Below, in pieces: positions 19,530-60,482 of a stretch of 64,000 nucleotides of DNA (positions are counted from its first letter, which is position 1; the number at the start of each line of letters is the position of its first letter). A model generated the notes under the pieces. That model worked only from the letters and a program-made list of their open reading frames with translations, had not been told where the DNA came from and ran no database searches. The position numbers were made by a program, and so were the translations under genes. This stretch comes from Octopus sinensis (lineage: Eukaryota): the NCBI RefSeq assembly GCF_006345805.1, contig NC_043001.1, positions 43,772,001-43,836,000 on the forward strand, read 5' to 3'.

Positions 19530-20071
<542 letters not shown>

Positions 20072-21110: not shown

Positions 21111-21377
21111 TATATATATTTAAATGGGAAAGGCCGGTTTATGGGATTACCTTAGGTTTCCCATCCATAAAGGGTTTAGTTTTATGGCGTATCATCAGAT
21201 CCCAAAAACCTGTTGGCCCATGACTCTTAAAAACATGGATGGGGAAATGCCATATTTTTAAAAGTTCGTAGGCCAACAGGTTTTTGGGATCTGACAATAC
21301 ACCACAAAGCTAAACCCTTTATGGATGGGAAAGCTAAGGTAATTCCATAAACTGTACTTCCCCATTTTTAATATATA
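21111..21377. mobile_element. Palindromic MITE (~265 bp hairpin)
   Basis: Arms include tttcccatccataaagggtttag / ctaaacccttt atggatgggaaa and tcagatcccaaaaacctgttggcc / ggccaacaggtttttgggatctga. Confidence 0.75.
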
Positions 21378-21714: not shown

Positions 21715-22320
21715 TAGTCATTATATTTAAGAGATGAGGAATTATGTAAATTATTAACATTATTTACATTGACAGATATTTGTCCTCATCTTGTTTGTTG
21801 TTAACACGTTTCAGCCTTCATCAGATGTCTTGGGGAAATTTTGAACCTGGGTTCTATTTCCTAAGGTACTTTTCAATGTTGTTGTTATTATTATTATTAT
21901 TGAGTGAGAGAGCAGTGCATGCTATCAAAGTGACACTGGGGTAAAATATATGAAGCCCAGTATACCCATCATGACTACCCATCTGATAAGGGTACACCAG
22001 ACACATGCATCACAACCATGTGTGCAACATAGACAGTGCATGACCTTGCAGGTGGGGCCCAGTTAGAATTTTCTTCTGGTTGAGCAGTCCATCCCACACA
22101 AAAGGTCCCTGAATAAGGATTGTTTAAGGATGTTGAACGAAACACCCATGTTTCCAGAGGTGAATTGTTCAAACCCCAAAGAATCCCTATGATGCTCCCC
22201 CACTACTTCTGCTTGTGATCAAAGACGAACATATCGTCAGCCACTAAGGGACATGGTCAACTGGTTAAGGTCAAATAACTGATAAGCAAATCTGTGGTAT
22301 TGAGTACAAGCAAATCTGTG

Positions 22321-22377
<57 letters not shown>

Positions 22378-22455
22378 TCACTGCCTGGAATCGAACTCAG
22401 AATCTTGGGGGTTAGTTGCCCATGCCCTTAATCACTATGCCATATGCCCATTGGC
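21715..22455 (-). mobile_element. Fifth copy of the hammerhead/tRNA-head repeat, split by another retroposon
   Basis: Tail and hammerhead at 21715-21890 (gacat CTGATGA aggct GAAACGT gtt, stem II deleted). Head at 22370-22455. Insert at ~21900-22323. Confidence 0.7.
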
Positions 22456-31921: not shown

Positions 31922-33991
31922 ATATGTTTGTGCTCCTTCCCCCCACCATCGCTTGACAACCGATGCTGGTGTTTACTATTCCTGCTTTGTTTATTTCCCT
32001 AGATATTGCCTTTAAGGAATTTTAATGTTGAATAGATATAAAGCTGTTCATGCTCGTCTATAAATTGTGTTGTATTCATGACTAATTTCCTTATCGTCTG
32101 CGATAAGGAAAGCAGGATGGTGAAGTGGTAATAAAGTGGCTGTGGTGGTAGGAAGAGAGGACAGAGAAGTGTTAAGAAACACTGTTAGAAAAAACGGTGC
32201 TCAGACTTCACTGCTTTGACCTAGAATGTGCAATGCTAATGTTTACTTGATAACAAACTTGGGCTTTGAAAATTAACCCTGTCAATTTGTAGCTAAAAGT
32301 AAACTTGTGAAACACAGATGCCCATAGCGGTCAAACTATGTTTAAATTCTGGACTGTAGATTGCAAAGTAATGCAGCTTTGCATTTTTATTTTTTTATTT
32401 TTTGGTTTTGATAAAGAGAAGAAGCTTTCACTGCTCTTTTTAGGTCTCTGATGTTGTTCTTGTTGTTTAACTCCAGATTACCCCTGTTGTGCAGACACAT
32501 GGCTTAGTGGTTAGGGTGTTGGACTTATGATCCTAAGATTGTGATACTGATTCTTGGACCAGGTGATGCATTCTATTCTTGAGCAAAACACTTCATTTCA
32601 CATTTATCCAGTCCACTCAGCTGGCAAAAATGAGTAATCCTACAATTGGTCAGCATCCCATCCAGGGGGGAATATATACACCACAAAGGCTAGGAAACTG
32701 GCCCTATGAGTTTATATGACCCAGGAAGGATCCTTATCCTTTGTCCTTTTCCCTCCTGTTGAAGTAGACCTGTGATCAAAGGCATTCCAATCATAACTAT
32801 CCTGTATTTTGTGGATGTGGTGGGCTCTTTTCTTACTTAAGATGGTAGAGTGTAATTTAAGGTAAGTTTGGCCACTTCTTCCAGAAGGGCAAGCAACCAC
32901 ATAAAGGCTCCTTCTGTAGACCAGTGTGATTGATATAACTAATATCACTTTTTCTAATTTTACCATAGGGCCAGGAATTTCAAGAAGAGAGGGCTTGTCA
33001 ATTACACTGACCTCAATACATAAGTGATATTTTATTTTATCCACGCTGAAAGGATGAGAGACAAAGTTAATTTCAGTGGCATTGATACAGCTAACATTAT
33101 GCTTGCACTATTGTACAGGTTTTTGGGGATAAAAAGTTTTAGCAGGGAGGTTGTTTCAGAGTGTTGTATTCTGAGAAGAAAAGATGGAGTGAAATATTTA
33201 ATATGGTTGTTGGGATAAGTGGGAGATTGTAAGAATAAAGATGAGAAGCACATTAATGAAATAGGGTTTGGAAGAGCATCCAGCCACAGAAACCATGCCA
33301 AAGCGGACATTGTAGCTTGATGCAGTCCTGCAGCTCACCAGATCCTATCAATCCATCCAACCCATGCCTACATAGAAGATATTCGTTAAATGATGATGCT
33401 GAAGGATCATAGATGCTGGAGTACATAGTCGACAAGTTCAGTAAAGCAGGAACTGTCATAGTAATAATAGTGGATAAGAACTTGTTTGTGTGTTCACAAA
33501 TGAGGGTTTGCCTTTCAGTTGAGTGGGTTTTTTAAATATTCTGTCTGAAATGTTTGTTGTTGCTGTAATTGTTACTGTATAACTCCAGGAGTGTTCTGAT
33601 TGTGCAAACTGATAGGTATTTCATCTGACCATAACTATCCTATCTTTTTCCTATGTGCAGGTGGTCCAAGATGGCATTACTCAATATGTCATTTTCTAAG
33701 ATGGTGGAGTATGATTCAAGAGAGATTTGGCTGCTATCTCTCTAATAGGTTGAGAGGTTCCAGTAGCAGCTGTATTATTCTAGATACTATGTGCAGTACT
33801 CCAAAGTATGGTGCATTTGTGTGTTGTAATGCTTCAAGAATCCATCTTCACTGTGCCAAAGATGAGTGGCTGTTATAAAAGGCCAGTTGGGATTTTGATG
33901 TCTAACATTTATAGAGGTTCCAGTTGTGTATAATATTGCAAATGTGCTTGTTTGATATGTATAACATGTGCATTGACAGTGGCTATATGTT

Positions 33992-34378
33992 CATTATTTA
34001 CATTATTTACATTTGACAGATATTTGTCCTCATCTTGTTTGTTGTTAACACAATGTTTTGCTGATATACCCTCTAGCCTTTATGTGGTGTCTTGGGTTCT
34101 CATTCCTAAGGTATTTTTTCGATGTTGTTGTTATTGTTATTATTATTCTTCAGGTCACTGCCTGGAATCGAACTTGGAATCTTGGGGTTAGTAGGCCACA
34201 CTCTTAACCACTATGCCATATGCCTGTGGGCAATTATAGAGTGAATTTTAGGGCTTAAAGATTTAATATTTTCCTATCCTTCCTTAATACCAGTTCCCAT
34301 ATGCTATTCATATCTGCATTTGGTCTGCGTAGGAGGTTGTTGTGTCCTAACATATGTGCTGCTTCTTTTAGTGACCTG

Positions 34379-34455
<77 letters not shown>

Positions 34456-34646
34456 CAACAACAACAACATCGAAAAATACCTTAGGAACGAGAACCCAGG
34501 TTCGAAATATCCCCAAGACACCTGAAGAAGACTGGAGGGTATATCAGCCGAAACATTGTGTTAACAACAAACAAGATGAGGACAAATATCCGTCAATTGT
34601 AAATAATGTACATAGTTCCTCATCTCTTAAATATAGAACTGTATGA
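33992..34646. mobile_element. Penelope-like element remnant: ORF 3' end plus terminal repeat (-), with an inverted terminal-repeat copy (+)
   Basis: The minus strand reads KEAAHMLGHNNLLRRPNADMNSIWELVLRKDRKILNL* (resembles a GIY-YIG C-terminus), then a tRNA-like head, (AAT)n and a decayed hammerhead. The inverted copy spans 34370-34646. Flanking direct repeat ctatatgtt at 33983-33991 and 34647-34655. Confidence 0.7.
34517..34562 (+). ncRNA. Minimal type I hammerhead ribozyme motif
   Basis: gacac CTGAAGA a gactg-gagggtatat-cagcc GAAAC ATT gtgtt. Stem I is gacac/gtgtt, stem II has one mismatch, and stem III ACAT is a CpG-decayed ACGT. Confidence 0.75.
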
Positions 34647-36329
34647 CTATATGTTGTTGAAAGATTCAGCATTCTCATATTCTTGAAGAAGGATGTTTTC
34701 AAGATCTAGTGGTCATAACAGGAAAAGCCCTCACCCAACTGATGGCTTCCATCTAGAAAATTTCACTTTGATCAAGTTTAGGACAGAAAAAATTTTACCA
34801 ATGTTTGAACCTTATATCAGATAGTTGCTAAATGAACTGTTTAACTATAAAGCAATGTATGTTTATATACATACATGCATACATACATACACAGCTGTCT
34901 AAAAATCTCCCCAAGATACTATCTTCTCATGATGATAAAGAATTAACCTCCTGAATTTTGTGGAAATATTTTTCCTGTTCAAAAGCACTTATTCAGCACA
35001 CATACATACATGTGCGTGTGCACACACACACACACACACACATGCACCCACACATACATTGTATGTATGCATTTGTATATGTATATATGTGTGCGTGTGT
35101 GTACCCTTGTCTAGATAACATGTAATGATTGTAAATGAATGTCATTGTCATGCAAGTGTGGATTGATCATGTGCATATTTAACCCTAGCACTTTCAATTT
35201 CTTTGGCTAAAGGGTAGTGCTCCAGCATGGCCACAGTCAAAATAAAAGAATACCAGAGGGACGTTCTGTACCATTGAACCAAGAAGGTTCTTTGAATATA
35301 TATGATGCATTTTAAGGCTACATAGTAATTCTGTTTACATTTGTGTAACTGAGATATTTTGGTTGGATTATATAGTTATTGGTTTTACACTTCTTTCTAT
35401 ATTCTGTAAGTGTCACAATATAGAAACGTTTCTCATGGCACCAGCACACAATTTACAGATGATTACATTTTTTATATTTTCTGTGAAGGTTTCACTGGTC
35501 CAGCTAGTAAGAATTAAAAGGACAACAATTAACTACTGTATCCACAATACACAAAGGTAGTGTTTCTCTGCCAGTGACCATGAATATATTTGCTTGAAAG
35601 TAGTTGATCAGATAAAATTCAGTCACTTCATGTGATGCGATACAGGTGGGGGTCTAATCAGTCTTGATAAAATAAATAAAATCAATAGAAAGCAAGTTAC
35701 TTAGAATTTGTAATGACTTCAAGAAATTTTTGAGAACTACTTTTGTCACTTTTTATAGTCCAAGTAGTTTTAGGGAGGGTATCAAGTCATAGAAACCTTG
35801 CCAAGTAGATCATAGAGAGCAACACAGCCCTTGGGCTAGTTGGATCTTGTTGAATCATCCAACACATGCCAGCAGGGAACATGAACATTAAAAGATGATG
35901 AAGATGATGATGATGATGACAACAATAATGATGATGATGATGACGGTGCTGATGATGACAATGATGACAACAACAACGACGACGATGATGAAAGAATCAA
36001 TGGAGAAAATGTGGACTATGTCAACAATCTTTACTTGTTTCTAAGCGACAGTATTTTTTTCATGACCAAACATGTTTTCCGTGGGAGAATTTCAATGAAC
36101 AACAACTTACATGCTCACTTACAACTGTCAGAGAATATCAAGACATGGGTACTCACAAACACACATGCACATATTGAACTGGGGTCAGTGTCAAGGTACT
36201 TCATAAGACTGAAAAGCAAAGTTAAGCTTGGTAAGATTTGAACTCAATATGTAAAGGATGTAATCGAATACCACAAGGTATTCCAGTGCTCCACTGATTC
36301 TACTACTGCATCATCTGGTGACAATGTTT

Positions 36330-58493: not shown

Positions 58494-59516
58494 CTTTAAT
58501 CACTCATCTCTTAGCATAAAGCTGCCTCCATCTTTACTGTAACCCCACTAAGTTGAAAGGAATCTAAGTCTTGCAAGTTACATGGTGATCTCACTAGTGC
58601 TGGTGCCGTGAAAAAAAGCATCCAGTATCCTTTGTAAAGTGGTTGACATTAAGAAGGACACTCAGCTGTAGAAAATATGCCAGAAGCAAACATTGGTGTA
58701 CAATGCTGTTCTCAGACCCATCAGATCCTGTCAAACTGACCAACCATTGTCAGCATGGAAGATGGACATTAAAAGATTACGCTGCCAATGCTGTCAATAA
58801 AAATGCTGTTGCTGCTAATGTATTTCTTAAAATTACTACATTTTACAACAGAAACTGGCAATGAGGCAATGAATATGTGACATTAGCATTAGTTATAGAT
58901 TCTCTTCTGGTTTATGTTGTGAATTAAAAAAAAAAGGAAAATTATAAACTTTCGATAAAGTTATATGATTATAAATTTGGGAACTATTCACTTCATTTCA
59001 AGTCCTGAAACACCTTTAAATACTTTCATCCCTACTATATTTCATTTGGTGATCAAAACTGATGCTGCAGCCATGGCTGTATGGTTAAGAAGTTTACTTC
59101 ACCACTGCATGGTTTCAGGTTCAATCTCATCTGTGTATAGTTTATGCATTGGATTCACCAATATTGTATGAGTGAAATTTGATTGACAGAACCTGAATGA
59201 AAGTTTGTTCTGTGTGTGGGTTGTGTGAGAATTGGTACATTCGATAGAAATACCCTGCAATATTGAAGTCCAACTGAACTGGCTGCTTTTACTTCAAAGT
59301 CTACTTTGCATTTCATATCTTAAAATATCTTAAAAGAATAACAAAATAAGTACCAGACATTTGGGTTTGATATCATCAACTAAAATCTCAAAAGCATAGT
59401 CACAGTCCCATTACTGAAAGCAGTAAAAGAAAAAAATAAATAAAAGAAAGCTGGAAATAGTAAAAGATATTTCATCTGTAGAGATGAGGTTAATAGTCTG
59501 AAGAATTATAGTCATA

Positions 59517-60065
59517 CAGTTCTATATTTATGAGATGAGGAATTATGTACATTATTTACATTTAACGGATATTTGTCCTCATCTTGTTTGTTGTTAACAC
59601 AACATTTCGGCTGATATACCCTCCAGCATTCATCAGGTGTCTTGGGGAAATTTTGAACCTAAGTTCTCATTCCTAAGGTATTTTTGATGTTGTTGTTATT
59701 GTTATTATTATTATTATTATTATTATTCAGGTCACTGCTTGGAATCGAACTCGGAATCTTGGGGTTAGTAGCCCGCGCTCTTAACCACTATGCTATCACT
59801 ACACCATATGCCCGTGGACATATGACATAGTGGTTAAGAGTGCGGGCTACTAACCCAACATTCCAAGTTCAATTCCAAGCAGTGACCTGAATAATAATAA
59901 TAATAATAATAACAACAACAACAACATCGAAAAATACCTTAGGAGTGAGAACCCAGGTTCAAAAATTCCCCAAGACACTTGATGAAGGCTGGAGTTCAGC
60001 TGAAAAGTTCTGTTAACAACAAAAAACAGGATGGGGACAAATATCCGTCAAATGTAAATAATGTA
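59517..60065. mobile_element. Head-to-head inverted pair of the same Penelope-like terminal repeat (tRNA-like head + hammerhead), inside the last PPM1K intron
   Basis: Minus copy ~59517-59812 and plus copy ~59817-60065. A 13-bp direct repeat aattatagtcata sits at 59504-59516 and 60066-60078. Confidence 0.8.
59596..59641 (-). ncRNA. Minimal type I hammerhead ribozyme motif
   Basis: Minus strand: gacac CTGATGA a tgctg-gagggtatat-cagcc GAAAT GTT gtgtt. Confidence 0.75.
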
Positions 60066-60212
60066 AATTATAGTCATATTAACAATAACTTATCACAGAC
60101 ATTTAAACATTTTGAAATATTTATTGATAAAACATACAGTGGGATGGTTTTGCACTTTCTATCTTGGTATGACCTTATCTCAATTTAATTATTTCAATTA
60201 TATTTTTTTCAG

Positions 60213-60482
60213 GTTAAACACTCAAAAGATGCTTTCTTGGTACTGGCATCAGATGGGCTCACATTTGTGCTTGCAGACCAAGAAATTGTGGATGCAGTCA
60301 GTAAGTGTGACATTCCTAAGGAAGCTGCTCATTTGGTGACAGACCAAGCCATGCAGTTTGGCTCTGAAGATAATACAACAGCTCTCATCATTCCATTTGG
60401 TGCTTGGGGCAAGTATCAAGCTGCCGACACTTCTAACCAGAACAGTTTTGGACGACAGTTATTAGGTGTTCGATATTGCTGA
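60213..60482 (+). CDS. PPM1K: PPM1K final coding exon
   Basis: Acceptor ttttttcag|, phase 0. Encodes VKHSKDAFLVLASDG..QFGSEDNTTALIIPFGAWGKY..TGA. Spliced CDS is 532+314+270=1116 nt (371 aa), the expected size for PPM1K. Confidence 0.96.
   Translation, partial: VKHSKDAFLVLASDGLTFVLADQEIVDAVSKCDIPKEAAHLVTDQAMQFGSEDNTTALIIPFGAWGKYQAADTSNQNSFGRQLLGVRYC

Follow-up and report, generated by a model that had tools for sequence, protein, structure and literature searches.

Penelope-like elements (PLEs) of the Penelope/Poseidon type, such as PAc of Anolis (PMC11167929) and Penelope of Drosophila virilis (PMC2377424; see also PMC8557442), encode a reverse transcriptase (RT) with a C-terminal GIY-YIG endonuclease within one open reading frame (ORF). 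They carry a terminal repeat (pLTR) at both ends and an inverted, 5'-truncated partner, most of their copies are short, their 3' ends fall at two positions 30-40 nt apart, and in PAc a hammerhead ribozyme overlaps the start of the ORF (PMC11167929). Published PLE promoters are internal and resemble those of long interspersed nuclear elements (LINEs) (PMC2377424, PMC8557442). Here we describe a repeat family of Octopus sinensis that shares these structural features and was recognized in a window of 64,000 nt (the whole stretch of DNA analysed; NC_043001.1, positions 43,772,001 to 43,836,000, forward strand). Unlike the pLTRs of Penelope/Poseidon elements, that of the octopus family bears, where the RNA apparently starts, a tRNA-derived head containing A and B boxes, as well as an internal (AAT)n run. 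The octopus element also differs from them in that its sense strand is without TTTT and, among the RNA-seq joints listed, no 5' intron was seen.

The combination of an RNA polymerase III (Pol III) promoter with a hammerhead, of which the original prediction from the window sequence knew no description, has precedents. The schistosome repeats Sm-alpha and Sj-alpha (PMC6765202, PMC2770079, PMC8490949) are likewise ~300-nt high-copy units in which a tRNA-derived Pol III promoter is followed by a type I hammerhead. They are, however, non-coding, often tandem and equipped with a canonical active hammerhead, whereas in octopus an autonomous element has the unit as its coding pLTR, with a hammerhead of the minimal kind. 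Animal non-LTR (long terminal repeat) retrozymes (PMC7229834; bioRxiv 10.64898/2026.07.22.740005) are also ~300-nt hammerhead units related to PLE pLTRs. These form head-to-tail arrays that yield circles, and the available parts of the reports describe no tRNA head for them; the octopus copies, in contrast, are single or head-to-head, and runs of at least two consecutive head-to-tail hammerhead units, by which retrozymes are defined, were not found as arrays in 90 loci. Ohshima and Okada reportedly described tRNA-derived short interspersed nuclear elements (SINEs) of octopus in 1994. With such SINEs the unit shares a 5' head with A and B boxes, but a non-coding, independent lineage is not supported. 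The terminal repeats of Cassandra, Helenus and Ajax likewise contain a small-RNA-derived internal promoter (PMC10886601). These elements and the octopus SINEs are non-autonomous, in contrast to the octopus PLE, whose head sits in ORF-bearing copies. Surveys of cephalopod repeats report abundant SINEs and PLEs and, in the parts available, no link between such a head and a PLE (PMC13282606, PMC8967140, PMC6962438). A full-text literature search (Repbase and Dfam were outside its scope) found no report of an autonomous PLE with a tRNA-type promoter in its pLTR. In the octopus family a tRNA-derived, probably Pol III, promoter stands at the apparent RNA start within a PLE pLTR.

That the repeat unit is the terminal repeat of an autonomous PLE encoding RT and GIY-YIG domains, as its Penelope-like origin had been read from the window, is near certain as regards PLE identity. 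We reconstructed the ORF by walking upstream from the ORF end across genomic copies and encountered a GIY-YIG-type C-terminus, then a thumb and then an RT domain. A 432-amino-acid (aa) open stretch of this single ORF matched Pfam RVT_1 (E 3.2e-10, 40.5 bits against a cut-off of 29.6), and a PDB search returned one weak RT match. The GIY-YIG call is indirect. Three fragments of the family's own ORF gave no match to Pfam GIY-YIG, and the assignment comes from atlas matches at 0.97 to clusters in which 12-27% of members carry this domain, and from 29% identity (E 2e-20) to a foreign PLE (L301), the C-terminus of which matches GIY-YIG at E 1.5e-4. The window holds the very end of the ORF (34371-34255, minus strand), which translates as LKEAAHMLGHNN...IWELVLRKDRKILNL* and had been likened to a GIY-YIG C-terminus; in other copies it continues into a CVYSIPCSCGRLYKGET-type endonuclease, thumb and RT. 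By eye, the linker between RT and endonuclease shows no cysteine cluster, unlike that of a second PLE of this genome (L335), a visual reading that bears on membership of the Penelope/Poseidon clade.

L335 (G000:C13:14770000-14776000, minus strand) was the one control left from a genome search for headless PLEs, in which all 30 top loci and 19 of the 20 ranked lower belonged to the same family as the window copies. It is a distant relative (29% identity, 503-aa open stretch) with a cysteine-rich linker ahead of the endonuclease that looks Neptune-like by eye, and no tRNA head was seen. L301, a metagenome contig of 2680 nt, looks like a complete PLE: its open frame spans 827 aa, and its inverted terminal repeats contain a minimal hammerhead; it too has no tRNA head.

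In the octopus element the ORF stop codon is followed after 30 nt by the head, the (AAT)n run, an ATG, the hammerhead, a tail and then the rest of the ORF, and this order is found at both ends of long copies. Among 30 loci picked by the 5' region of the ORF the repeat unit stands immediately before the ORF. Loci L127, L144 and L154 begin at the head, and L131, L146 and L147 have ORF-end sequence ahead of it, the partial-tandem form known for PLEs (PMC8557442). L122 is a near-full natural copy of ~2.8 kb from head to head; L133, L141 and L145 are internally deleted long copies. The 3' half of the unit is coding and comprises the first ~55 codons of the ORF: the ATG after the microsatellite runs in frame via the hammerhead and tail into the ORF. 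Of 11 translated copies, 3 (L132, L149 and L154) keep this frame open, and in the other 8 stops or frameshifts interrupt it. Splicing from the in-unit ATG to the ORF was considered and dropped, as the frame is already open. No GT-AG joint that would indicate a 5' untranslated region (UTR) intron was present among the joints listed from RNA sequencing (RNA-seq), whose reads derive from many copies. The 3' ends form two clusters ~35-40 nt apart (132 and 108 of 289), with 16 copies continuing into the ORF; this agrees with the tail of PLEs and with the pair of internal RT start sites in PAc. A directly repeated pLTR at both ends, an inverted 5'-truncated partner and a 30-40-nt tail are all present. 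Target duplications flank 4 of 16 edge-started copies compared with 5 of 240 mismatched pairs, indicating that they occur but are not general.

The family-majority hammerhead consists of stem I (GACAC/GUGUU), CUGAUGA, one additional A, stem II (GGCUG/CAGCC) and GAAAC-GUU, without loop 3. With its cores, stems I and II, extra nucleotide after position 9, G10.1-C11.1 pair, palindromic stem III and NUH site it agrees with the features that Cervera and de la Pena (2014, PMC4209133) list for minimal type I hammerheads in metazoan PLEs. The published ribozymes likewise combine a short stem I, an additional nucleotide placed between 9 and 10.1, G10.1-C11.1 and palindromic 15.2-16.2 without loop 3. 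Stem II is 5-6 bp in octopus versus 7-8 bp in the S. mansoni families (PMC4209133), and the ribozyme is otherwise not different. By analogy with these ribozymes, the octopus hammerhead is expected to act only as a dimer, as had been predicted. Direct reading of the sequence found an intact hammerhead in 0 of the 5 window copies, and 59 of 181 copies had one in a sample that favoured good copies. An exact 46-nt hammerhead is present 761 times genome-wide, compared with 0 for a reversed control. Core columns are conserved at 0.930 and other non-CpG columns at 0.936 (in a sample partly picked on the hammerhead), which points to no selection on the ribozyme in genomic copies. Rfam gave no hammerhead or tRNA match to the family in the window, in one good copy or in 20 loci with exact hammerheads. 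No RNA-seq read ends at the predicted self-cleavage site, in libraries not suited to reveal such ends. For PAc, the ribozyme needs the protein and uncut RNA is the main substrate (PMC11167929).

The A and B boxes of the head are spaced 45 nt apart. Among 27 distinct tRNAs of the genome, which cover 6 amino-acid types only, the best alignment to the head was tRNA-Arg(TCT) with a z of 7.7 against shuffles; tRNA-Ala (6.9) and tRNA-Cys (6.5) are close, so that the isotype is not settled. A tRNA origin is suggested by this alignment to the genome's own tRNAs. The boxes are retained and the cloverleaf is lost, with 2 of 7 pairs in the acceptor and 3 of 5 in the T stem. ARAGORN reported 0 tRNAs in the window copies. 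The head is built into the family, as had been claimed: 26 of 30 copies picked by the head have the downstream body. Whether most copies lack it is a borderline matter, since 28-32 of 59 hammerhead-picked copies keep some of the head and the rest are 5'-truncated in or just after the microsatellite. The head is 64-72% like other SINE heads of the genome. The window itself contains heads of other tRNA-derived SINE families at 32493-32555 (plus strand) and 19869-19916 (minus strand), 65-69% like the PLE head, the former scoring 26.4 bits on Rfam tRNA.

Copies begin at a sharp edge. In the 28 head-keeping copies among the 59, the start lay at -18..+6 relative to the head in 16, inside the head in 11 and in the ORF in 1. 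An unbiased set of 30 copies, chosen solely by an exact motif at head +2..+23, started at -8..+1 in 22 cases and at -9..-44 in 0, with 8 running on into the ORF (one of these, L361, was re-scored by eye because of an indel). Genome-wide, exact motifs were counted 4203 and 4245 times within the head, 1024 times just upstream and 685 times another 98 nt upstream. The step at the edge is thus 4-fold raw and ~10-fold after a correction that was derived from ORF-linked loci and may overstate it. The observed starts lie 5-14 nt ahead of the A box, in the region in which Pol III transcription from a type-2 promoter is expected to begin. The sharp 5' edge at the head fits a probable Pol III start site.

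The ORF is also depleted of TTTT. In a census of 147 natural ORF fragments (131 kb, coverage 22-87 over 2311 nt of ORF sense strand) TTTT occurred at 0.40 per kb, compared with 2.08 expected from composition. No run was common to more than 11% of copies, so the ancestral ORF (2.3 kb) was without TTTT where 3-6 were expected; the unit majority has none either. Runs of A and C were near expectation (28 vs 29.0 and 5 vs 3.1). As controls, three foreign PLE ORFs had 3.2-5.8 per kb, L335 had 4 vs 3.6 expected, and 16 long frames of matched T content had 2.45 per kb, corresponding to 5.7 expected in 2311 nt. No A/B box pair was found in the 3' UTRs of the three foreign PLEs (86-180 nt, possibly cut short) or of L335. 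With no ancestral TTTT, the autonomous element may itself be a Pol III transcript. Pol III use by the family appears fairly probable from these sequence features. Transcription of the whole element by Pol III, which the lack of TTTT would fit, is a lead that we hold as tentative. We are similarly doubtful of the full scenario, in which a captured tRNA-type promoter replaced the usual PLE promoter, TTTT was purged from the 2.6-kb sense strand, Pol III RNA is translated and reverse-transcribed, and the SINE-like stubs are strong-stop-like run-off products.

Our preferred reading, to which we assign a probability of roughly 0.6, is that the tRNA-derived head is an internal Pol III-type promoter of an autonomous PLE and that the short copies are run-off complementary DNAs (cDNAs) copied from the 5' end of the PLE's RNA. 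The RNA would start at head -8..+1 and read on into the ORF. The element's protein would then begin cDNA synthesis internally, at either of two sites that lie ~130-165 nt into the ORF, as in Anolis PAc, where initiation is internal at two start sites and the template must extend ~55 nt beyond them (PMC11167929). On linear RNA the RT would run off at the RNA start and leave solo units of head-to-tail length, frequently in inverted pairs. For copies that extend into the ORF end, the template would have to be tandem or circular, and cleavage and ligation by dimeric hammerheads could produce such RNA. Ending at the RT start, solo copies would be without the downstream protein-binding region, making them dead ends rather than SINE masters. 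In the solo copies the cleavage site is uncut, the 3' ends coincide with the two PLE-type RT start sites, and ORF codons are included.

A different origin of the short copies, close to what had been proposed from the window, would be a short SINE- or retrozyme-like RNA that Pol III transcribes from solo or internally deleted masters and that the PLE mobilizes in trans. It would account for the 4- to 10-fold excess of head-bearing over ORF-linked copies (5 head modules vs 1 ORF-end module in 800 kb) and for the sharp 5' edge. Possible masters exist in the few internally deleted long copies listed above, and Sm-alpha (PMC6765202, PMC2770079) and the non-autonomous Chlamys elements (PMC8557442) are precedents. 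However, the majority of 70 edge-started copies differs from that of 94 ORF-linked copies at 0 of 256 columns, the lone column at p 1e-4 being a decaying CpG. Within one selection group the two kinds are equally diverged (identity 0.927 for 22 edge-started vs 0.923 for 8 ORF-linked copies), although across differently picked sets the values are 0.932 and 0.896. Each unit has a single hammerhead, uncut in the copies, 90 loci contain 1 tail-to-head junction (L049) and no array, and the unit includes the ORF's first codons. Identical sequence and age, the lack of arrays and ends at RT start sites together lead us to read the stubs as run-off cDNAs, and mobilization of a short RNA in trans seems unlikely. 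A stand-alone SINE lineage is not supported, as the copies show no diagnostic subfamily columns, an ORF start inside the unit and an age equal to that of ORF-linked copies. Of the predicted Pol III transcription of the repeat by itself, a probable Pol III start at the head survives and the independent SINE/retrozyme RNA is not supported.

The promoter role of the head has an alternative of its own: a SINE fragment captured passively by an element that is transcribed by Pol II. The edge would then mark a palindrome before the A box at which the RT tends to stop or switch templates, or a coincident Pol II start. A hairpin of -7.1 kcal/mol (hammerhead stem II: -8.1) spans -14..+8, right on the edge, and several inverted pairs are joined there; such a hairpin may halt the RT or bring about fold-back. 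Such a capture would agree with the likeness of the head to other SINE heads, with the missing Rfam and ARAGORN calls on the head and with the internal promoter, likened to those of LINEs, that is published for PLEs (PMC2377424, PMC8557442). Fold-back, however, leaves most edge-started copies unexplained, since an inverted partner is present in only 5 of 22. In addition, the starts lie at the position expected for type-2 Pol III initiation, the boxes are retained while the pairing is lost, no SINE with the PLE-family head plus another body was found in the 800-kb sample, and TTTT is absent from the ORF but normal in foreign PLEs, L335 and matched frames. We consider passive capture improbable.

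Besides the hairpin, several observations weigh against the promoter and run-off reading. The TTTT deficit is that of one ancestral sequence, and the probability of finding none varies with the null model over 0.003-0.07 (0.008 under base composition, 0.07 when TT depletion is taken into account). A pooled dinucleotide test (27 vs 77) overstates significance because the copies share one ancestor. GGGG is also absent from the ORF (0 vs 2.6 expected), and synonymous-codon shuffles of 4 natural open stretches gave TTTT counts of 1 vs 2.8, 0 vs 0.3, 1 vs 1.5 and 0 vs 0.4, none significant singly. Three unstranded RNA-seq runs (X21-X23) yielded 6941, 5389 and 4864 reads of 11.5-12.9 million, with equal strands, no sharp ends and no direct sign of Pol III. 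Reads at the ORF start were ~100-fold below those of the unit, which fits passive inclusion in other transcripts; short Pol III RNAs are invisible to these libraries. No intact active copy was seen, the copies being ~5-10% diverged. Finally, the suggestion that solo copies would lack a protein-binding site is borrowed from the lizard element.

The five ~250-300-nt stretches first noted in the window all exist and are 77-92% identical to each other, with A-box-like, B-box-like, (AAT)n(AAC)n and hammerhead sequences located as described, but they reduce to three insertions (Table 1). Element orientation is minus for 21715-22455, 33992-34231 and 59517-59812 and plus for 34370-34646, which is without a head, and 59817-60065. 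In keeping with the inverted terminal repeats noted for PLEs, two insertions (33992-34643 and 59517-60065) are single inverted pairs within target duplications of 12-13 bp. The third, 21715-22455, is a single copy split by a foreign repeat in its (AAT)n microsatellite.

Table 1. Features of the three insertions in the window (window coordinates).
Feature	Position	Strand	Basis
3' end of PLE ORF, GIY-YIG endonuclease C-terminus; stop 34255-34257	34255..34371	-	translation
tRNA-derived head: A box 34208-34218, B-box-like 34164-34173	34152..34225	-	alignment, box positions
Short microsatellite, ORF ATG (motif at 34094-34106), decayed hammerhead carrying a deletion, 3' end of the short type	33992..34151	-	
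Inverted 5'-truncated partner: last head bases, (ACT)n(AAT)n(AAC)n, hammerhead 34517-34562 with stem II mismatch and ACGU lost, long-type 3' end at AGAACTGT 34635-34642	34372..34643	+	
Left target-site duplication, first inverted pair, 12 bp, 1 mismatch	33980..33991	+	flank sequence
Right target-site duplication, first inverted pair	34644..34655	+	flank sequence
Second insertion, arm 1, with a head (B box at 59741-59752), a microsatellite, a hammerhead at 59596-59641 whose first stem II pair is broken, and a 3' end of the long type	59517..59812	-	
Second insertion, arm 2, with a head (A box at 59823-59833, B box at 59865-59876), a microsatellite, a decayed hammerhead at 59974-60014 and a 3' end of the short type	59817..60065	+	
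Left 13-bp target-site duplication, second insertion	59504..59516	+	
Right 13-bp target-site duplication, second insertion	60066..60078	+	
Third insertion, 5' part, with a head (A box at 22432-22442, B box at 22387-22398) and a microsatellite	22325..22450	-	
Third insertion, 3' part: microsatellite, hammerhead with stem II deleted, tail	21722..21901	-	

The unrelated ~420-bp repeat that parts the head of the third insertion from its 3' part (21902-22320) recurs inside or beside the (AAT)n of the PLE family and also lies upstream of the unit in L004, L009, L128, L148 and L248; AAT microsatellites may be its target. At 21150-21350 an inverted-repeat element has CTGATGA on the minus strand at 21198, a match to the hammerhead core pattern, and is possibly another PLE stub. 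The second insertion sits ~150 nt upstream of the last coding exon of a PP2C-family phosphatase gene (60213-60482, plus strand; Pfam PF00481, E 3e-8), presumably in the last intron.

Eighty evenly spaced 10-kb genome stretches (800 kb total) contained 5 hammerhead, 5 head and 1 ORF-end modules, from which we extrapolate a family of ~17,000 copies, with wide error and most of them short. Dividing the ~4,200 exact head motifs by an exact-match rate of 0.22-0.24 gives ~18,000. Median identity to the majority is 93-95%, with decayed CpG columns. L136, L139, L140 and L151 are 98-100% identical across 3.2 kb including flanks, and three of them lie on small contigs; they are likely unmerged haplotypes or a duplication, so that family counts hold some redundancy.

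PLE transcription and the role of the hammerhead are known from very few elements, and the octopus family offers a start site that can be mapped. It is well suited to testing whether Pol III transcripts can sustain a protein-coding retrotransposon. If they do, the element would need cap-independent translation, and its silencing would differ from that of Pol II elements. The end of a PLE is also a possible source from which SINE-like elements could emerge. If Pol III is not involved, the family would be an ordinary PLE with a captured SINE fragment. For annotation the family is a warning: ~17,000 stubs would be classed as tRNA SINEs although they are seemingly by-products of an autonomous element.

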